Shown here one piece after another: positions 2,467 to 53,534 of a DNA stretch of 64,000 nt. Numbering within the stretch: the first letter of the stretch is position 1; each line of letters begins with the position of its first letter. A model generated the notes under the pieces. That model was not told the DNA's origin. It ran no database searches and saw nothing but the letters and a program-made list of their open reading frames with translations. The translations under genes and the position numbers were made by a program. The stretch lies in the sequence record OZ413487.1; one strand, written 5' to 3'. The DNA is from a phage.

Positions 2467-4890
2467 ATGAGCATGTGGTCGTTCGACTTTGAGTCATCCG
2501 GTTTGCTGGAAGACCCAGATCTTTATTATCACTGCGGCCTGTTTAAAGAGCTGAATAAGAACCGTTTTATGCTGTTCCTTCCTCTAAATGACCGCACACA
2601 CTACTCCGAGGAGGATATAGAAAAGGCTAAGAACTTCATTCTGGCAAAGAAAACTCTTTATAAAGATTTTGAAGTTCGCATAGCAGATTTTTCAGAGTTG
2701 GAAGGTTGGCTTACAGGAAATTCTGACTGGTCACCAACAGCTTTGAACTGCCATAACTGCTACAGTTATGACTTTATGCTGATGGAAAGATTATCTGGTA
2801 TTCATTTTGATATGTTCCGTGATCCTAAATGTATGGGGACTATCAACGATCACCAGGTTAACCTGTTTGATACGTTGGCGATGAGCCGAATCTTGTGGCC
2901 TGATCGCCCTTTACCAAAAGGTTGTCCGGACTCTGTATTCAACCCGGTTACTAAGAAAATGCAGCCTGTTGGTCCTCACGGCCTTATGGCATGGGGCTAC
3001 GCCCTTGGTAACCAGAAAGTTCAAATTGATGACTGGCGCGATCTTCCGTTGTGGAAGTATGTGGATCGTGTATTCGAGGACGTTATCATCCAGGAGCTGC
3101 TCTGGAAAGAGCTGGTAGCGGAATCAAAAGGTGTATTCTACGGCAAATCTGACATGCAGAACTTTATGTACGATCCGGCCAAAGAGAAGCCGAAAGGGTT
3201 CAAGAAGATCACCTGGAAGAACGCATTACGTCGAGGCATGCTGCAGCACTTCCTGATGGAGCTGCAGGCCCGTCAGGGTGTATACTTCGACATAGATGGA
3301 GCTATTGCTTTACGTGACCGTTGCGATGCGTGGATGAAAGAAATCGCTGATCGTGTTGAACCACAACTACCTTTAAAAGAGCTGTCAATGTCTCAGCGGC
3401 CCAAGTTCCCTGAAAAGCCGTTTAACCAAGACGGGACAATCTCTAATAATGGTTGGAAATGGTTAAAAGATAAGCTTGGCTATCCTGTAGACATGAGTGC
3501 TTTAGAGTTCAAAGCCCTGCCTAAGCGAGCATTTACCTCTACAGGAGATGTCAGCAAGATGGGGATAAAATGGTGTGAAGAGATGGGCTGCAAAGACCCC
3601 GATAAGATGGCTGATTTCTTGAGAGGCTATATTAAGGGCACCTCCACACCACAACCCTTACCTAAAGAGCTGATGGATCAGGCAATAAGTGATCTGCAGC
3701 AGAAGCGAATGCCTGACTGCAAGATACCTATGAAAATCAGCAATCAGGACGACATCAAGCGATACCTAATCAGTGCTGGTTGGCTCCCAACAATGTGGAG
3801 AACTAAAGATGTAACTAAAGACAGCAAGAAGAAAGCTTTACCTGATGCAGATGTTGATGCACGAGTATATGCATATATGGACGAGCTTTTGGAGTCAGAG
3901 TATTGTGACCTAATTATCAACTTCTGGAACAAAACTGATGCTAAGTTCCAGACAACCGTGCACAAGTTCCGAAGCTTTCCTAACTCCGAAAGGATTAAAA
4001 AGGAAGTATTCGGGAAAATACGTAGAAAAGCCAGGGCACTTATTACTTCTCCGCAACTGAAAGATACGTTTGGACACCTATGCCCAAATCTTGAAAAATT
4101 GAACGGAGAGATGGCTAAAGATATCGTCTTGTGGTTATCATTGCGAAACCGCAGATCGGTCCTTGATCCAATCAAGGAGGATAAGGTTGATACTGGTCTT
4201 CTTAATCACCCACGTTTGAAGATTGACCATAAGCTTCCTGCTAAAAGCTCTGGATTAACAAACACTTCCAGACAGAAACACAGTATTTGTGCAAACATGC
4301 CTAAACCATCTCCTAAAGTAGTTATGGGTAAAGAGATGCGTAGTCTGTGGGGTGTTCCTCCAGGATACTTTGAGATCGGTATTGACGGGTCCAACTTAGA
4401 GCAGCTCATCGGGGCTTGGGGTGCCTTTGAGTTCGACAACGGCTTGTATTATGATGTTGTAAGTAACGGAGACGCACACCAAAACAATGCTGAGGCATAT
4501 ACAAAAGTGGCAGGCAGAGAGGTGTCCCGTAACGACGGTAAACCTATCACGTATGGGGTTATGTACGGGGCACAAAAAGATAAAGTTGCAGATATGCTGG
4601 ACATCTCCCCAGAGTTGGGACAAAGGGTAATCGATGCACTCTGGGATGCCAACCCAGGTCTTAAGGGGCGCAAAGAGGATCTGGAGAAATTCTGGGAAGC
4701 AACAGGTAAGAAGTTTATCTACTCTTTTGATGGTCATGCTATCTGGACCCGATCTAAACACTCTTTACTTAATGCATACCAACAAAATGGCGGTGCATCG
4801 TTGTGTGACTTAGTTGGAATACTCATGCACCACCAGATGGTGAAGCGTGGGTGGTACGATGAAGGTGTTCGTCGTATTATTTATTACCAT
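2467..4890 (+). CDS. DNA polymerase, family A, exon 1 (3'-5' exo + polymerase motifs A and B, up to His of motif C)
   Basis: N-terminal exo I motif FDFESSGL; motif A GIDGSNLEQ; motif B RNDGKPITYGVMYGAQ; ORF ends ...RRIIYYH-K-stop where family A polymerases have VHDE. Confidence 0.8.
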
Positions 4891-5166
4891 AAATAACATT
4901 GTGGCTTCATAGAGTAATCTATGTCGAATAACCTCTTTAACTGCGGGAAGCCTAAACCTTATGGCAAGGTAATCCGCAACGAAGCGCTCAAAAGAGCGAA
5001 CGCTCAGAGGCCATTCCGAAAGGAAGTAGACCAGCAAGTGCGGTCGAAATGGGAGGATTCCTGTGGTTGCTTATCATAGGAATATGAGATGGTCCGATCC
5101 TACGTGAAAACGTATGGCTATGCACGTAATGGTGCGGGGTAGCTTAACGACCTACCTGAACTATTG
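4891..5166. other. putative group I self-splicing intron in DNA polymerase gene
   Basis: Exon 1 ends in U (4890); intron ends in G (5166); internal guide CAUUGUGG (4897-4904) can pair with exon-1 end CCAU (P1, U.G at splice site) and exon-2 start GAUG (P10); four in-frame stops; splicing restores YYH-DEYQLQV. Confidence 0.55.
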
Positions 5167-13528: not shown

Positions 13529-13718
13529 GCTTAAATCCGCATGGAGCATTGCTGTGGGTGATGAGATCCGTATCCCCGGTGGGAAGACCATTATGAAGAT
13601 ATCTCGTATTGAGTACGAAGGTGACCGTGTATTCCACATCTTCGCAGAAGATGGTCGAGAAATTTATATACAGGCAGGTTCTCACATTTATATCCGTAAG
13701 AAAGGGGACGACAAATGA
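13512..13718 (+). CDS. hypothetical protein
   Basis: ORF track; overlaps neighbours in operon fashion. Confidence 0.4.
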   Translation: MVLMFKLKSAWSIAVGDEIRIPGGKTIMKISRIEYEGDRVFHIFAEDGREIYIQAGSHIYIRKKGDDK

Positions 13719-14044
13719 CAGAAATCATCATTTCAACTGCAGGGTATGTGTTCCTGACAATCATTGCACTGACTATTTTGGTGACAGTGTATGGGTTTGT
13801 TATCCTTCCTATCCTTGAGACATTTAGTTTGTGTCGGTGTTGGAGAAAAGCTTACGGTCCACAACCATGGAAGGACTGGCCCCACCTGGTGCGCTTAGCG
13901 TTCTCTTATGCTTACGATCACTCCAGTAGTGCATGCATAACCGGATACCACGCCCACAACTGGAGCTGGGAAGGGTTGAGGAAATGGAATGTTACAAAGA
14001 CCATACCTCTGCGCATGTACAAACCTAAAAACAAAGACAACTGA
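13715..14044 (+). CDS. hypothetical membrane protein
   Basis: N-terminal hydrophobic segment YVFLTIIALTILVTVYGFVILPIL. Confidence 0.4.
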   Translation: MTEIIISTAGYVFLTIIALTILVTVYGFVILPILETFSLCRCWRKAYGPQPWKDWPHLVRLAFSYAYDHSSSACITGYHAHNWSWEGLRKWNVTKTIPLRMYKPKNKDN

Positions 14045-14640
14045 TACTTGAAAATTCTTGGCATATCAAGTATAAGGGGGATTTCTAAAATGGATTTCCT
14101 CCTTTTGATATTTCACCGGGCCGGATATTTTAAAATTCTTAGAAAATCAGAAAATGGATCGAAAACTAAAATGGATTTTTCAGAGTAGGCGCGACAAGCT
14201 GAATAACTCATCCTATCGTTTGCACCATATTCCAGGCCACCATTATAGATTTCCCACACATGCTAACCTCCCTCTACTAGAACTTCCTCCACTTACCCTT
14301 GACCTTCTATGGTAACAATCTAACCGCTATCTTGAAGTTGCTGTGCAGCTTTCCAGGTACTCGATCTACTTTTCATTTCAGGGCTTGGATTTTCTGAAAA
14401 TTTTTCTCGATAAATTTCTCAGTACTCGATCTGTTTTTCGTTTTCTGAATCGGATTTTCTGGAAATCGTTCCGGCTCTCGACCTGAAATTTTTGGGGACG
14501 AAATCGATTTTTCGTTTTCAGAAATGGATTTTTAAAATTTCTATATGGGAATATTTTATGGGATACTGTTTTATAGGAAATTGTTACGGAGGGTAATTAG
14601 CGTGCTAATTAAATTTATTAAATGCGAGGAGTTCTCATTT
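14045..14640. repeat. AT-rich iteron array (AAATGGATTT, GGATTTTCTG, TACTCGATCT units; 64-bp tandem at 14351-14478)
   Basis: Direct read: repeated decamers and two ~64-bp tandem units; no credible ORF. Confidence 0.6.
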
Positions 14641-14680
14641 AGAATTTTGAATGATAATCATTCTCGTTTGCAGAATAACG

Positions 14681-14703
14681 GGCAGGCCCGGTGATTGTCT
14701 CCC
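14681..14703 (+). repeat. conserved 23-nt motif GGCAGGCCCGGTGATTGTCTCCC, copy 1
   Basis: Near-identical copy in inverted orientation at 22121-22143; related copy at 14822-14837. Confidence 0.6.
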
Positions 14704-14821
14704 GGCCCCTACTGCCCCGGCTTGTTATTATAGTATCACACAGGACAAAGAAAGCAAGGATTTTTTGCATAAATTTTTAAATGATAATGATAACCGTTCT
14801 CATTTTATGCAGCGCCCATCC

Positions 14822-14837
14822 CCGGTGGTTGTCTCCC
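14822..14837 (+). repeat. conserved motif CCGGTGGTTGTCTCCC, copy 2
   Basis: Second copy of a ~65-nt unit (begins TTAAATGATAAT... like copy 1). Confidence 0.5.
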
Positions 14838-14880
14838 CCGTCACCGGTGCCTGCCGTCCTTTCGATAGGTATATCGTGCC

Positions 14881-15195
14881 ACCTGGCGGGGCCGCTGTCA
14901 ACACTTTTCAAAAAATTTTTCTAACCTGATGCGCTAACCGCTGCAACCTGGCGGGGTCAGCCTGGCAGGACCTAACTGACCGGGTAGGAGAGAATGAAGG
15001 CTTGTAAACCTGGTGGGCCTATGCTACAGGATAGGTAACAATTGAAGAGGAGGTACAAAAATGAAAGGTAATATGATCCCCCTAGAAAATGTAGCTATTA
15101 ATGACGCTGAGGCTATCGCCCTGGTTGAAAAGGCTATGGCGGGAGCGTTGGAACATAAAGAAGAGTACGAAAAATGGTGGTTAACCTGGCGGGGG
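14881..15195 (+). repeat. four copies of ACCTGGCGGGG-like motif
   Basis: Copies at 14881, 14946, 15007 (ACCTGGTGGG) and 15184; first three spaced ~62-65 bp. Confidence 0.5.
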
Positions 15196-15228
15196 CGGCA
15201 GGTGGATTCTATCATAAAAATAATTTAA
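15061..15228 (+). CDS. hypothetical small protein (55 aa)
   Basis: ATG with strong GAGGAGG RBS; below ORF-track length cut-off. Confidence 0.35.
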   Translation: MKGNMIPLENVAINDAEAIALVEKAMAGALEHKEEYEKWWLTWRGRQVDSIIKII

Positions 15229-15236
15229 AATAGTCG

Positions 15237-15265
15237 TTGACAACAAGGTTAATCATGGTATTATT
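15237..15265 (+). promoter_or_regulatory. sigma70-like promoter (TTGACA, extended -10 TGgTATTAT)
   Basis: Shares AAAATAGTCGTTGACA context with promoter at 6648. Confidence 0.5.
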
Positions 15266-15315
15266 ACCCTACAAGGTGAACAACACCGCACTAACCAGTA
15301 AAGAGGATAAATTTA

Positions 15316-21707: not shown

Positions 21708-22120
21708 AGAGTTGTCGAGGGGGAGGCCCCCAATCGTTGACCAGATAGATAGGAGTTAAAATCATGGCTATTGTTACCGCTGGCTATCTTCAAAGATGCG
21801 GAAGCAAAACAACGCCGGATCTCAATACATGAGATCATCAACCTTAACGCTGGAGGCACACCATACCGCCCAGGACCTGGCCGTGAGATGGACAATACGC
21901 TAGCGATCCTGAAGATACGCCGTAAACGGTCCTCCCTTACTCTGGACTCATTACACACAATGCAGCCTCCGTTCCAGGTGACCGGGAAACGGATCGCCAG
22001 GTCCTGGACAAAGGCCAATGATCGGACCGTATAAATAAAAGTGTTTTGGTACTGATTTTGGGGTTGACTTGTTCGGCCCCTTTTGCTATTCTTATTAAAC
22101 GGGCGGCACTTGGGAACAGG

Positions 22121-22143
22121 GGGAGACAATCACCGGGCCTGCC
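22121..22143 (-). repeat. conserved 23-nt motif, copy 3 (inverted orientation)
   Basis: Reverse complement GGCAGGCCCGGTGATTGTCTCCC matches copy at 14681 at about 21/23 positions. Confidence 0.6.
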
Positions 22144-22167
22144 TGTCATATAAGAACTATAAAAACC

Positions 22168-22251: not shown

Positions 22252-22524
22252 ATGTCAAACTGGATTAATCAAGAAGTCGAATCACGTTTTAATGCTATTT
22301 GGGATCTCATCGAAAAAGAAGACGGCACATCAAGCCCCTACCTCAACAATTTGGAATTCCATTTTGTGGAAGCGATGAACGCAGAACATGATCACGAAGG
22401 TGGCGCGGATGAGTTCGCTAAAGGTTATGGCTTTAACAATGCCAACGAAATGATCGAGGCGGTAGTACTCCAGGCTGAGGAAGATTATCAACTAAAAACG
22501 CTTGAATTCTGCCGCCGCAAGTAA
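22252..22524 (+). CDS. hypothetical protein
   Basis: ORF track; GAGAGGAAAA RBS. Confidence 0.5.
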   Translation: MSNWINQEVESRFNAIWDLIEKEDGTSSPYLNNLEFHFVEAMNAEHDHEGGADEFAKGYGFNNANEMIEAVVLQAEEDYQLKTLEFCRRK

Positions 22525-22848: not shown

Positions 22849-22867
22849 TACAACAAGGTGCACGGTC

Positions 22868-22893
22868 AGGGGCTTAAAGCCCCTTTCTTTTTG
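22868..22893 (+). terminator. intrinsic terminator ending the + strand gene block
   Basis: AGGGGC-TTAAA-GCCCCT followed by TTCTTTTTG. Confidence 0.7.
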
Positions 22894-23502
22894 TCTCCTC
22901 TTTTCCTACCACAAATGGCCCCGCCTGGCAAATGGAATAATCAACAAGCCAGCAATTAACCCCACTGTACAAACATACATATAAAATAACTATTGCATAA
23001 TTTTTCATTGTGTGGTAGCAGTGCCATTTTTACACGTTTTTCCTTCCAAAATTGCACGTAATGCAGCATTTGCACAAAATTTAACCTGATGCATATCTTC
23101 AATAGCTTGTCAACAACTAAAAATCTTTATAAGTCATACACTTACATAACTACAAAAACGTTTTCTACGTGAAAAATCGAGTATAACTATAGCCGCCAGA
23201 TCTCAGAATTTACGTACGCTCGCCATTCTATAGCCTGCTAAGCATTTATTCCAACCATAGAATAACGGAATAGTCAATACCTGCATAAAATAATTATTCG
23301 TGTAAACTGCATAACATAAATCGGCCCAGGTGTCAACATTTTTCGTAAACAGTCTGGAATTGTCACGTTAGGTTACCATAAGCAGAGAAATCTTTAGTCG
23401 TCTAATGTTTACTGTACATTACTATACTGACTGGAATCATTAGATGACTAAGAGAAAGATAAGAAATAATTAATAATGTAATTATTTTACCTGTAACAAT
23501 AA

Positions 23503-23760
23503 GGCAACTATGCAAACGAATGGCATGGCGCGACGGAGTCGCGACATAATATAAAAGCAGTAACCATCACCCCCGTGATAGTTTGTCTGCAAACTATTAA
23601 TCAGATCATAGTTGCCTTGTATTTAGTTAATCATGACATGACAAGCAAGGCAACTATAGATCTGCTAATAGTTGCCCTGCTTTTATATTATGTCATGCTA
23701 ATTATAATCAGTGCGATTATTGTCATGTATAATTATTGTCATGCAAACGAATGGCATGGC
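23503..23760. repeat. GGCAACTAT motif x4 (two inverted pairs) bracketed by 19-nt direct repeat TGCAAACGAATGGCATGGC
   Basis: Direct repeats at 23511-23529 and 23742-23760; 12-bp inverted repeat ATAGTTGCCTTG / CAAGGCAACTAT at 23608-23619 and 23646-23657. Confidence 0.6.
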
Positions 23761-23767
23761 TGATTAT

Positions 23768-23862
23768 CGGTGTGTAAACAGTCAATCATGTAAATGGTTA
23801 GCATGTGAACAATCAGGAATGTAAACAATCCAGTGTGTAAACTAATAGGTGTGTAAAAGTGT
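23768..23862. repeat. TGTAAAC iteron cluster (5 copies in ~95 bp)
   Basis: GTGTGTAAAC x2-3, ATGTAAA, AATGTAAAC at 11-25 nt spacing. Confidence 0.55.
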
Positions 23863-24134
23863 CATGTTGTGTCAGTTAGGTCACATTATGTCAGACAAGT
23901 TTTTCTCCTCTTTGTCAAGTGCTGCATGAAAAATTTACAAGCTTGTATGGTAGCATTTTTGCGGCCCTGTTTACATTCAGTAATGTATGTATAATCCTTG
24001 TTGTGTGGGCGTTTAGACGTCTAGACGGTTGGAAGTCCACAGGTCAATATCTAATCTATCGGCTGCTAACTATATCCCACACAAATAGTAAGAAATATGA
24101 TTGTTATATGCGTAAACTGTAACTCATGTTATCA

Positions 24135-24505
24135 ATCCCTGTATGGATCGCCAGTGGTGCGCATAATAGGTATTATGTTAAATTGCCCGTAATGATAACA
24201 GTTCTCACAATGATAGGTATTCTCATTCATCCACACAAAATAGGTTGCAAATGTTGTGCCACTGTGTGAACGGCCTGGCCTATTAATTTCTCTCACTGCC
24301 TCGATATTTGAGAATTGTTATCCCTGTATGGATCGCCAGTGGTGCGCATAATAGGTATTATGTTAAATTGCCCGTAATGATAACAGTTCTCACAATGATA
24401 GGTATTCTCATTCATCCACACAAAATAGGTTGCAAATGTTGTGCCACTGTGTGAACGGCCTGGCCTATTAATTTCTCTCACTGCCTCGATATTTGAGAAT
24501 TGTTA
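24135..24505. repeat. tandem duplication, two ~185-bp units
   Basis: Unit beginning ATCCCTGTATGGATCGCCAGTGGTGCGCATAATAGG... occurs twice head-to-tail, essentially identical. Confidence 0.85.
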
Positions 24506-25564
24506 TAAGAATGAGAAGTATTCCCATTCCGTCCGCCTGGCAGCACTCCTGTAGGTCCTGCAAGGACTCTAGCTGAAAGCTAGACCCTTCGGGCCTCCCT
24601 GTAGGTCAGGTCAAAATCGTGGTAGAATTGGGCCTGTTCAGATATTTCTGGCTGACTCTTCAGGTCTGTGTGGGAAAAGCCAACCTCTCCGGCGGGGCAG
24701 GGGGTCATGACGGGAAAATTGCAGGTCAATTAAAAAATTTACGTGGTGTATGAAGCGCTCTTCAGGTAAGGCATGTATTATGGGATGAAACCCTCTTCAG
24801 GCAATGATATTTGTGGGTGTGATATTTGCTGGAAAGCCAGATATGACGGGACTCCCGGCGGGGATGGGGTAGTACAGACAGGGAAAATATGAGAATGTAG
24901 TTGGGGAAATTGATCAGACAGGTAGAGTATGGAATATGTTACAAGTATGTTAAATATGGAGGTTGAATATCTGTAGGATTTGTGTGTAAAATCAAAGACT
25001 TAAGGGGTGTTGTGGTATTTTCTATAAATAATTCAAGTTTAATAGGCAATATTTGTCTCTATCCGCTTTGTGTGGTAAACAGATTCAGATTAGATTGGTT
25101 TACAAGTGTATACATAATATACAAATTAAAGATACAAGAAACCCCCCTCCCCCTTCGGCTACCATTCACCTTTTCCTCTGACTGGTACTTAAACACTTAT
25201 TCAGACTCTTCAGGTTATCACCCATATATCATATGGCAGTGACTGGTGTCCTCCGGCCCCTCTTTCGTCACCCGTCCGCTTCGCCATGCTAATGCCATAG
25301 CCAATGGTTCGGTTGTTCACTCTGTTCACTCAGGTGTATCTCCATACCCCTTCAAACCGAAGAGAACAGAAAACCCGAATTACTCGGTAAAAGAAAAGAG
25401 AAGAACTTAATTTTATCAGGATAGGCAAGAATGTCAAGGCATGACTGCTCACTAAACAAGCAAACAGTCATGTGTGGAAGGTAAGTGATTGTGGTGGTGG
25501 GAAATTTAGTTGAAAGATGTGTTATAGGTGCTCCCAGCACTTTAGCCGGGTAGCTAATTGTGTG

Positions 25565-52316: not shown

Positions 52317-53300
52317 TTAGATTATCTGAATCAGGGTATTTTTCATTTCTTCTCTGGTTCGGATGTTGTTACGGTCACGAACAACAGATCCACAACCTTC
52401 GCAGCGGTATGTTTTAAATGCACTCAGTTGAGTATACGCCAAAGCTTCTTCCTCGTGAAGGTGTTCTCCACCACAGCGTGGGCAACGAACTTTTGGCTCC
52501 TCATCCTGGTAGTACAATGACATGTTGGGGTGCTGCTTAGCAAACGGGCGAGCCAGCAAATACAGGCCTTCCAGAGATAGGATATCGCCAACATTGTACT
52601 CCCGCATCTGTTTAAACGCCTCAAGATCACCGTGAACACACTTGATCCACATTTCAAATGTGTGGTCAATCAGTTTCTGTCGGGCAAGTTGGAAGTATTT
52701 GCATGCATACTCCAAAGTGTTTGCATTCAAACGGAATGCCTTCTTGATCATTTTAAGGGTGTCAACCTCTTTGTAGGGGCTTGTTGGAGGCAATCCGTGA
52801 AATGCAAATCGTTGGTTGGCCCACCCACAGTCAAAACCTGAATTGTGGGCTACTGCGACATCACATTTATCCAGATAATACCACAAATCCTGAATCAATT
52901 CGAGATCATTGTGAATATCCTCATCCCACATTTTGTAATCAGGAAGAGCGCAGTCAACCACACTAGGACTGTCTAACCACTTACCTGCGAAAGTTAGCAT
53001 GTAGGGCATAATTTCAATACCACAGGTTTGAATGTTGGTCTTATAGTGCCCAAAGAACCAGCCGTTTGTTGGGGATGTCTCTGTATCATACACCCAAACT
53101 TTAGCACCTTTGTGCTCCTCAAGGAAGCGCTCCGTTGCCTCTCCTACAATCTCTGACATATTCTCTTGTGCACGTTTAAGCTGTAGTCGGATCCAGCTCT
53201 CACGTGACTCACGGCCTAAAAATTCACGAGCAATTTGTCTATTAGTGTATCCCTGTTGCTTTAGTGTTAAAATTTGCTCAAGAGTTAACTTTGTCATCAT
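52317..53300 (-). CDS. DnaQ-like 3'-5' exonuclease with N-terminal HTH and C-terminal zinc ribbon
   Basis: Exo I VYDTETS; Exo II VAHNSGFDCGW; C-terminal CPRCGG...CEGCG. Confidence 0.55.
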   Translation of the reverse strand: MMTKLTLEQILTLKQQGYTNRQIAREFLGRESRESWIRLQLKRAQENMSEIVGEATERFLEEHKGAKVWVYDTETSPTNGWFFGHYKTNIQTCGIEIMPYMLTFAGKWLDSPSVVDCALPDYKMWDEDIHNDLELIQDLWYYLDKCDVAVAHNSGFDCGWANQRFAFHGLPPTSPYKEVDTLKMIKKAFRLNANTLEYACKYFQLARQKLIDHTFEMWIKCVHGDLEAFKQMREYNVGDILSLEGLYLLARPFAKQHPNMSLYYQDEEPKVRCPRCGGEHLHEEEALAYTQLSAFKTYRCEGCGSVVRDRNNIRTREEMKNTLIQII

Positions 53301-53312
53301 CGTTAAGATTCC

Positions 53313-53534
53313 TTAGTAAAACTGAAGAATGTCTTTTAAAGCGAAGTCACGATATTCGCCCTTGTCTACATCGAAGGCACGCATCAACCACTGCTCTTCT
53401 TTATGATACTCTGTAGAGCCAAACCATAAATTAGGCTCAGTAACGCAGCGATCTGCAACAACACCTTTCCAGTTACGGTATTTCATCCTGATCAGGACTG
53501 AGTCGCAAGGATTGAATACCTTTTTCATCCCCAT
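53313..53534 (-). CDS. hypothetical protein
   Basis: ORF track. Confidence 0.35.
   Translation of the reverse strand: MGMKKVFNPCDSVLIRMKYRNWKGVVADRCVTEPNLWFGSTEYHKEEQWLMRAFDVDKGEYRDFALKDILQFY

Follow-up and report, generated by a model that had tools for sequence, protein, structure and literature searches.

The window analysed here, a 64,000-nucleotide stretch of phage DNA from sequence record OZ413487.1, belongs to a Vequintavirus, an rV5-like coliphage. Our subject is a gene-free gap of 1,016 bp within its plus-strand early-gene block, at 14045-15060, bounded by the plus-strand open reading frames (ORFs) at 13715-14044 and 15061-15228. Over positions 13700-15300 the identity to Escherichia phage EdH4 is 98.5%, and most of this stretch is covered by 111 phage records. 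The original prediction had drawn attention to 14045-14640 as an ORF-free, AT-rich iteron array, a candidate replication origin or regulatory hub. This region is the left part, about two-thirds, of one conserved non-coding module of ~1 kb that occupies the whole of 14045-15060; the start had been placed correctly, and the end cuts the module in two, with the predicted promoters, the hairpin RNAs and the Fur-like palindromes (14620-14901) lying mostly beyond 14640. The module is conserved in many phages of the E. coli type and probably serves as a replication origin or control hub, fed by two predicted promoters without a gene of their own.

Anatomy of the gene-free module

The earlier claim that the region lacks genes holds for the longer span, 1,016 bp compared with the 596 bp first stated. 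None of the four candidate ORFs in the gap (14048-14188, 14154-14315, 14651-14929 and, on the minus strand, 14113-14259) is intact throughout the eight close relatives with which they were compared: each is broken in at least one, by frameshift or stop codon. The ORF at 14651-14929 (92 aa) has its own PHROG family, yet it is interrupted in relatives, and the small ORFs annotated in GenBank records of the gap differ in position and strand and are mutually inconsistent. As to composition, the GC content of 36.6% in the region is below the window-wide 43.0%, so that the AT-richness claimed for it is real and only moderate in degree; 14481-14680 is the third-lowest-GC 200-bp stretch in the window. 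No host homologue of the region was found in 5,426 E. coli genomes. The map in the rV5 genome paper has a box marked 'non-coding', left uncommented (PMC3606486), and the searchable literature on rV5/Vequintavirus origins, Fur boxes in lytic phages, transcriptomes and termini holds no description of the locus, the repeats, the hairpin family or the Fur-like boxes.

The features considered below are listed from left to right; the anatomy and the fractions of invariant columns come from a 9-genome Vequintavirus alignment, together with inter-genus comparisons.

14074-14113, plus strand: intrinsic terminator of the upstream plus-strand operon, hairpin AAGGGGGAUUUCUAAAAUGGAUUUCCUCCUU followed by UUGAUAUUU.
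14077-14183, no strand: block A, with (T/G)GATATTT at 14106 and 14123 and AAATGGAT at 14088, 14152 and 14169.
14184-14346, no strand: variable spacer, 51% invariant columns.
14347-14411, no strand: composite unit 1, GTACTCGATCTACTTTTC ... GGATTTTCTG ... GAAAATTTTTC.
14412-14485, no strand: composite unit 2, GTACTCGATCTGTTTTTCGTTTTC ... GGATTTTCTGG ... TGAAATTTTTGG, invariant in the genus.
14486-14545, no strand: composite unit 3, degenerate, ACGAAATCGATTTTTCGTTTTC ... AAATGGATTTTTAAAATTTC, 74% identity.
14546-14619, no strand: AT-rich linker, ~32% GC, a candidate unwinding region that contains a 15-bp repeat in two copies (14554-14585).
14620-14639, no strand: distal palindrome AAATGCGAGGAGTTCTCATT, class TGAGAA-N3-TTCTCA, with better palindromes in other genera (ATGAGAATCGTTCTCAT and similar).
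14647-14665, no strand: Fur-box-like palindrome 1, TTGAATGATAATCATTCTC, 15/19 to GATAATGATAATCATTATC.
14680-14716, minus strand: predicted hairpin RNA copy 1, closing stem GGGCAG/CUGCCC, invariant GAGACAAUCACC (14701-14690), then UUAUUCUGC.
14757-14727, minus strand: predicted promoter P5, -35 TTGCTT (14757-14752), 19-nt spacer, -10 TATAAT (14732-14727), predicted start ~14720.
14783-14801, no strand: Fur-box-like palindrome 2, GATAATGATAACCGTTCTC, 16/19, the top match in the 64-kb window.
14809-14855, minus strand: predicted hairpin RNA copy 2, GAGACAACCACC (14835-14824), a duplicate specific to Vequintavirus.
14901-14873, minus strand: predicted promoter P3, -35 TTGACA (14901-14896), 17-nt spacer, -10 CACGAT (14878-14873), predicted start ~14866.
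14880, 14945 and 15007, plus strand: (A/C)ACCTGG(C/T)GGG motif (ACCTGGCGGGG repeats) in an indel-rich stretch, 14880-15018, ahead of the gene at 15061; another at 15183 inside the next ORF.
22064-22146, plus strand: third promoter-hairpin copy, TTGACT-17-TATTCT (22064-22092), then stem ACGGGCGG...CUGCCUGU around GAGACAAUCACC.

At the right of the module, two conserved promoters are predicted to point leftward into the palindromes and repeats. The decisive clue to a promoter-hairpin module was an invariant 12-mer inside the GC hairpins, GGTGATTGTCTC at 14690 and GGTGGTTGTCTC at 14824, of which a third exact copy lies at 22123-22134 on the opposite strand. All three copies have a sigma70-like promoter directly upstream on the strand reading GAGACAAnCACC, and each transcript predicted from P3 and P5 opens at the base of a GC hairpin of ~40-50 nt that carries GAGACAAnCACC. 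Both promoters run leftward through the palindromes into the linker and the repeats, with no intact ORF downstream. Their activity is predicted from conserved hexamers: the promoter scan detects orthologous promoters in phiTE and GEC_vB_MG, the equivalents reading TTGCAA-17-TATATT (P5) and TTGACG-18-TATACT (P3, by position) at locus L004 and TTGATC-16-TATTAT (P5) and TTGCAA-17-TATAGT (P3, by position) at locus L007, the hexamers being conserved across genera and the spacer lengths variable. The P3 of the window itself scores under the threshold of the scan; its -10 reads CACGAT, compared with CACAAT in the 8 aligned relatives, and the promoter match is weaker because of this single change.

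The closing stem of the hairpin is 89% paired in 14 non-Vequintavirus orthologues, with AU, GC and GU exchanges at three pairs, compared with 23-57% in slid controls; 36 of 500 shuffles equalled the observed pairing. The G:U pairs are possible only on the strand that these promoters would transcribe. Folds of single sequences are weak (z -0.5 to -1.6). Covariation of GGGCAG/CUGCCC within the genus was rejected, the variable bases occurring in all four combinations, as was a long structured RNA over the 250-nt conserved element, where the consensus is weak on both strands (-18 kcal/mol over 250 nt). A search of Rfam 15 at gathering and permissive thresholds returned nothing relevant in the window or in 7 orthologous loci. 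The third copy of the module, between the genes at 21765-22034 and 22252-22524, is accompanied by neither a Fur-like box nor a repeat array and is kept in Stephanstirmvirinae (anhysbys 53264-53319); no further copy was found in the remaining EdH4 genome. We regard the three copies as a candidate new small-RNA family.

The palindromes that these transcripts would cross form one class, TGA(T/G)AA-N3-TTCTCA, and palindrome 1 is the most conserved piece between genera (75-88% DNA identity). The matches at 14647 (15/19) and 14783 (16/19) to the Fur consensus GATAATGATAATCATTATC are the two best of the window; shuffles yield 0.3 matches of at least 15/19 per 64 kb, and two within 200 bp in none of 60. 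Other genera carry two to four Fur-like boxes in a row, and the form GAGAATCATTCTCATTTGC of Seunavirus and Henunavirus shares 16/19, by hand count, with GAGAATCATTAGCATTCGC, the Fur box of the iucABCD promoter, which is bound by E. coli Fur in vitro (PMC10318462). The likeness to operators such as that of iucABCD thus lies in the agreement of the boxes with the 19-bp consensus; unlike Fur operators, the boxes of the window lie downstream of the hairpins, without overlap of a credible promoter. The sole promoter candidate that overlaps a box, TTGAAT-17-CAGAAT, matches at 8/12, under the scan threshold, and was dropped as a Fur-repressed plus-strand promoter (P1), its essential -11 position being A, T or G among genera; the conserved GAAT more plausibly corresponds to AUUC, the tail of the minus-strand hairpin RNA.

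As to what might bind the palindromes, four IMG/VR contigs (33-57% GC) that share no consistent protein with the phage contain the exact 23-bp palindrome too, which favours a host factor. A second palindrome cluster, seven copies at 24193-24512, reaches only 13/19 to the Fur consensus, and because of this a phage-encoded dimer with TGA(T/G)AA half-sites is possible. We note separately that in one of the four contigs, L025 (IMGVR_UViG_3300042896_000600), an uncultivated viral contig without a close relative in the phage collection, three tandem 30-bp GCTGAATGAGAATCATTCTCATTTGGAAAA repeats at 1805-1895 are directly followed by two strong sigma70 promoters. L026, L029 and L031 contain this perfect palindrome as well, so that boxes of Fur type close to the consensus may be more widespread in the early regions of phages.

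A further pattern belongs to the other genera. A perfect GTAAA-N5-GTAAA, which we take to be the CpxR-box pattern, precedes the -35 of the P5 equivalent by a few bases in most of the non-Vequintavirus loci L003-L016 (not in Hena1 or ABPH49), typically once per locus (for example, L004 2117-2131 and L007 2119-2133). It is absent from the window.

The repeats into which the promoters point are arranged differently from the original prediction. Its decamer in four copies, AAATGGATTT, occurs exactly at three sites (14088, 14169 and 14522), and it is the 8-mer AAATGGAT that has four copies in the region, of five plus-strand copies in the whole 64 kb; the two further decamers given as twofold, GGATTTTCTG and TACTCGATCT, were recovered in two copies each among the repeat families. 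The two-unit tandem of ~64 bp seen at 14351-14478 is actually three composite units of 65-74 bp, with cores at 14347-14393, 14412-14458 and 14486-14532, spaced by 65 and 74 bp and 70-74% identical; Tandem Repeats Finder did not detect the array, the units being too diverged. A unit is made up of GTACTCGATC(T/G)nTTTTTC (CTCGATC..TTTTTC), a GGATTTT-type motif and a GAAAATTTTT-type A/T tract, and of short cores the array has CTCGATCnnTTTTTC in 2-3 copies. With at most 2 mismatches, CTCGATCNNTTTTTC has 8 matches in the window compared with 2.3 expected, a number reached in none of 100 shuffles, and 3 of them are in the region. Across a genome equivalent (the window plus the rest of EdH4), the motifs of the array and block A are confined to this locus, and within the genus 81% of the array columns (14347-14545) are invariant. 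The RNA that P3 and P5 would transcribe from 14347-14560, on the minus strand, folds no better than shuffles (z +0.34), and a structured RNA from the array was rejected on this account; since the transcribed strand has no fold, the constraint would act at the DNA level. The adjacent element at 14546-14640, at ~32% GC, resembles an unwinding element by composition only.

To the left of the array, the terminator consists of a stable hairpin and the U-rich tract UUGAUAUUU, with a fold of -15.8 kcal/mol (z -2.8) on the plus strand, compared with -6.9 kcal/mol (z -0.25) on the minus strand. In relatives GGAGGA replaces GGGGGA and a pair passes from A:U to G:U, which fits a plus-strand RNA only. Its hairpin loop contains the first copy of AAATGGATTT. 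Block A has 90% invariant columns in the 9 Vequintavirus sequences, and its position is taken in Mydovirus, Seunavirus and Henunavirus by TGATATTT and GAAATGG(T/A)TTT repeats. In the spacer at 14184-14346 no conserved motif was found within Vequintavirus; in other genera it holds TTATCTCAAA three times at conserved spacings of 22-23 and 87-88 bp.

Conservation across genera

By sensitive DNA search, 14609-14766 is matched at 70-88% identity in phAPEC8-like phages (Stephanstirmvirinae), Mydovirus, Seunavirus, Certrevirus, Henunavirus and others, phages whose genomes are otherwise less than 50% identical to rV5, and each of them has a gene-poor gap of 0.8-1.3 kb at the match. GEC_vB_MG, Hena1, ABPH49 and Seu621 also have three units, spaced by 65-76 bp, in which boxI (CTCGATCGGTTTTTC) and GAAAAAATTTTT stand at near-equal distances to the palindromes. 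The three boxI/GAAAAAATTTTT units recur in Seunavirus, Henunavirus, Mydovirus and ABPH49 with block A motifs upstream, TGATATTT and GAAATGGTTTT repeats preceding those arrays; Certrevirus phages have extra copies of GGGTCTCGATC, and phAPEC8-like phages retain the palindromes, the hairpin and the promoters with a different upstream array. Within the genus the motif blocks are 81-90% invariant, compared with ~50% in the flanking coding DNA and in the internal spacer. The alignments indicate that these blocks are under purifying selection, and the view that the module is conserved and non-coding, contains several kinds of motif and is probably bound by proteins is well supported.

Between the predicted promoters and the gene at 15061, the (A/C)ACCTGG(C/T)GGG motif has 9 matches compared with 2.6 expected, with 9 reached in none of 100 shuffles, and relatives differ there by indels of whole repeat units. 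ACCTGG also stands directly after the -35 of the phiTE promoters (TTGACAACCTGG) and inside the spacer of P3.

The non-Vequintavirus genera have in common a non-coding segment of ~170 nt (CTACCGGCGATCCACCTTCC ... GTTAGCCCCGCCTTTTCGCCGTGGGGTGGCG, at ~2140-2230 of L004-L010) with a plus-strand hairpin containing several G:U pairs. After it comes a small minus-strand ORF, with DUF7170 in Seu621 and the motif LGWQGGTVHQV in phAPEC8 and phiTE. Vequintavirus has neither the segment nor this ORF; their place is taken by the duplicated unit of hairpin and Fur-like palindrome. The minus-strand promoters are faced by the plus-strand hairpin of the other genera (GCCCCGCC..GGGGUGGC, its tail rich in U and C) in an arrangement reminiscent of ColE1 RNA II/RNA I, which makes overlapping transcripts possible. 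Unlike ColE1, no plus-strand promoter could be supported, and Vequintavirus has the duplicated unit instead of the plus-strand hairpin segment.

A proposed transcription-activated origin and competing readings

Weighing the functions that such a module might serve, we rank first, and hold tentatively, a transcription-activated replication origin of the type of the T7 primary origin and T4 oriF/oriG, followed in order by a transcriptional and small-RNA hub, an array acting as RNA, a packaging site and an ordinary region. Replication of T7 is started by transcripts from tandem promoters that enter an AT-rich region. Let us suppose that the upstream operon stops at the terminator at 14074-14113 and that host RNA polymerase starts at the tandem leftward sigma70 promoters P3 (~14866) and P5 (~14720). 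Each transcript would then begin with a GC hairpin, pass across a Fur-box-like palindrome and run on, without meeting anything translatable, through the AT-rich linker into the three repeats of ~70 bp. The transcript, or transcription itself, might open or prime the DNA for a T7-type replisome (a PolA-type polymerase and a gp4-like primase-helicase), the repeats and block A perhaps acting as assembly sites, and the palindromes, as sites for host Fur or some other dimer, might gate transcriptional read-through. What the sequences show is the anatomy, the lack of coding, the conservation, the promoter-like hexamers and the pairing of the hairpins; we infer promoter activity, protein binding and any replication function of the module.

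Such a scenario would account for two conserved predicted promoters being aimed at AT-rich DNA with no gene to express, and for a strongly conserved non-coding region with three phased A/T-tract units, motifs unique in the genome and an array constrained as DNA, its transcribed strand having no RNA fold. The likeness to the T7 primary origin (phi1.1A/1.1B and an AT-rich stretch) and to T4 oriF/oriG (a promoter and a downstream unwinding element) lies in promoters directed into geneless AT-rich DNA, and extends to the T7-type replisome of rV5, where gp228 is a PolA-type polymerase and gp230 a gp4-like primase-helicase (PMC3606486). The T7 and T4 origins need no initiator protein, which matches the absence of an initiator gene here. 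The module differs from those origins in its promoters, which are of the host sigma70 type, in the conserved GC hairpin that opens each predicted transcript, and in the Fur-like palindromes and three composite repeats of 70 bp that the transcript would meet; R-loop formation or priming is putative. With the iteron origins (lambda ori, P1 oriR, plasmid oriV, PLE) the module shares non-coding direct repeats, A/T tracts and an AT-rich flank; in PLE, for example, the origin is a non-coding region in which RepA_N iterons surround a poly-A tract (PMC7145576). Unlike iteron origins, the module has only three units, of 65-74 bp, without an adjacent Rep/O-type gene and without a DnaA or IHF site.

A number of observations weigh against an origin at this locus. 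No initiator-like gene adjoins it: the flanking ORFs have no Pfam or functional PHROG match, and the flanking genes in other genera (unknown function, HNH, NADAR) are not conserved and have no Vequintavirus homologue. Within 14000-15100 there is no DnaA box TTATCCACA (at most 1 mismatch) and no IHF consensus WATCAANNNNTTR, and a GATC cluster for Dam/SeqA, of the kind seen in oriC or P1, was rejected, with 3 GATC in 1 kb compared with 5.4 per kb overall. The units, as 65-74 bp composites, are unlike classical iterons of 17-22 bp. The -10 of P3 in the window is weak (CACGAT) and the spacer of P5 is 19 nt long, and the hairpin module is not specific to an origin, because its 22.1 kb copy lacks a repeat array. 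The GC3 skew of plus-strand genes is +0.03 on the left side and -0.14 on the right side (p = 0.02), a change of opposite sign to that of a bacterial-type origin, weak and confounded by gene content. Finally, the non-coding region at 22850-25000, which exceeds this one in size, AT content and repeat density, offers an alternative origin site. Skew analysis of rV5 has detected transcription-linked changes only and did not locate an origin (PMC3606486). We also looked for an analogue in the mapped origin region of ICP1 (~60 kb) and discarded it, as there is no comparable non-coding gap. The original observation is largely right and the interpretation given to it reasonable. What stands of the earlier proposal of an origin or regulatory hub with multimeric protein-binding sites is the conserved non-coding multi-motif region; origin activity is neither shown nor refuted.

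One could go further and propose a host-gated, transcription-primed origin common to Vequintavirinae and, in part, Stephanstirmvirinae, with a new hairpin-RNA family, gating by Fur (iron) and, elsewhere, a CpxR-type box, by which replication would be coupled to the iron and envelope state of the host. We consider this full combination improbable.

The reading that survives best after the transcription-activated origin is a purely transcriptional and small-RNA hub with no replication role, which we judge unlikely and nevertheless the most serious competitor. P3, P5 and the 22.1 kb copy would be the genes of a family of small hairpin RNAs (~50 nt) with the functional loop GAGACAAnCACC, the palindromes operators for Fur or a phage-encoded dimer, and the repeats and block A regulator arrays that time early and middle expression or insulate two plus-strand operons. 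In favour of this reading, the promoter-hairpin module is present in three paralogous copies, in each of which the promoter stands on the GAGACAA side, and the closing stem pairs well above its slid controls, with G:U pairs that fit one strand only; against this the single-sequence folds are weak, the shuffle control is only the 36 of 500 given above, the whole-element consensus fold is poor on both strands, Rfam has no match, and no clear terminator follows the hairpins. A control region would also fit the placement of the locus between a plus-strand terminator and downstream plus-strand promoters, the recurrence of the perfect CpxR-type box at the same place upstream of the P5 -35 in other genera, and the sevenfold clustering of the palindrome class at 24193-24512. 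It leaves unexplained why three 70-bp A/T-tract units are constant in number and spacing between genera.

Quite improbable, in our estimate, is that the array acts as RNA, with read-through from P3 and P5 carrying the repeats as a decoy or antitoxin-like RNA comparable to the phiTE pseudo-ToxI. The promoters are indeed directed into the array, nearly every base of which is invariant within the genus, and phiTE, a member of Vequintavirinae, does have a functional repeated non-coding RNA, though at another locus (106.7 kb); the possibility that pseudo-ToxI represents the same locus was rejected for that position. The units of 65-74 nt are longer than the ~36 nt of ToxI, conservation between genera is limited to short DNA motifs and the distances separating them, and the minus-strand fold of 14347-14560 given above (z +0.34) and the lack of an Rfam match speak against a functional RNA.

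A packaging site (pac), with repeats and phased A/T tracts bound by the small terminase, is disfavoured and about as unlikely. Repeated elements with bendable A/T tracts occur in SPP1 pac and lambda cosB, and the array resembles them; rV5-type genomes have also been reported as circularly permuted. The location, however, is neither that of genome ends nor that of a terminase neighbourhood: the large terminase gene lies tens of kb off (EdH4 90411-91958, with the locus at ~11.2-12.2 kb). In the Mydovirus KPP-1, a Klebsiella phage, the physical ends form a 514-bp direct terminal repeat, 116316-116829 (PMC9862379), which is 8.3 kb from its copy of the locus and at a convergent strand switch, so that the equivalent in the window would be 22850-25000, not 14 kb. 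That the region is ordinary, with repeats that are spurious or in decay, or that it encodes several small proteins, is scarcely credible: GenBank has several small ORFs there, one with a PHROG family (phrog_14993), but these ORFs are broken in relatives and annotated in disagreeing positions and strands, the motif blocks are more conserved than the adjacent genes, and the core keeps 75-88% DNA identity across genera whose genomes are otherwise less than 50% identical.

Significance and observations elsewhere in the window

Non-coding phage regions in which repeats and promoters make up an origin or a control region are known as a kind; the particular architecture considered here is not. Phages of the rV5-like and phAPEC8-like groups are common in therapy and biocontrol cocktails, and their origin, transcript map and regulatory sites are undefined. 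The locus is a concrete, conserved and testable candidate for an origin or control region, and knowledge of the origin would be useful for engineering these genomes. The near-consensus candidate Fur operators, moreover, stand in a strictly lytic phage; if Fur binds them, host iron status would be linked directly to the programme of a virulent phage.

The region at 22850-25000 is a 2.1-kb gene-free, repeat-dense and AT-rich stretch at a convergent strand switch, with 35% GC at 23001-24000. It includes an exact 185-bp tandem repeat at 24135-24506 (2.0 copies, 100% matches) that carries the seven TGA(T/G)AA-N3-TTCTCA palindromes and TCATCCACA, which agrees with the DnaA box at 8/9 (hand count), and it also has GTGTAAAC and CAAGGCAACTAT repeats. 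As the positional equivalent of the 514-bp terminal repeat of KPP-1, it is a candidate terminus or packaging region, or an alternative origin.

Lastly, a group I catalytic intron is present at 4881-5116 of the window on the plus strand (Rfam RF00028, 64.7 bits, E 4e-14).

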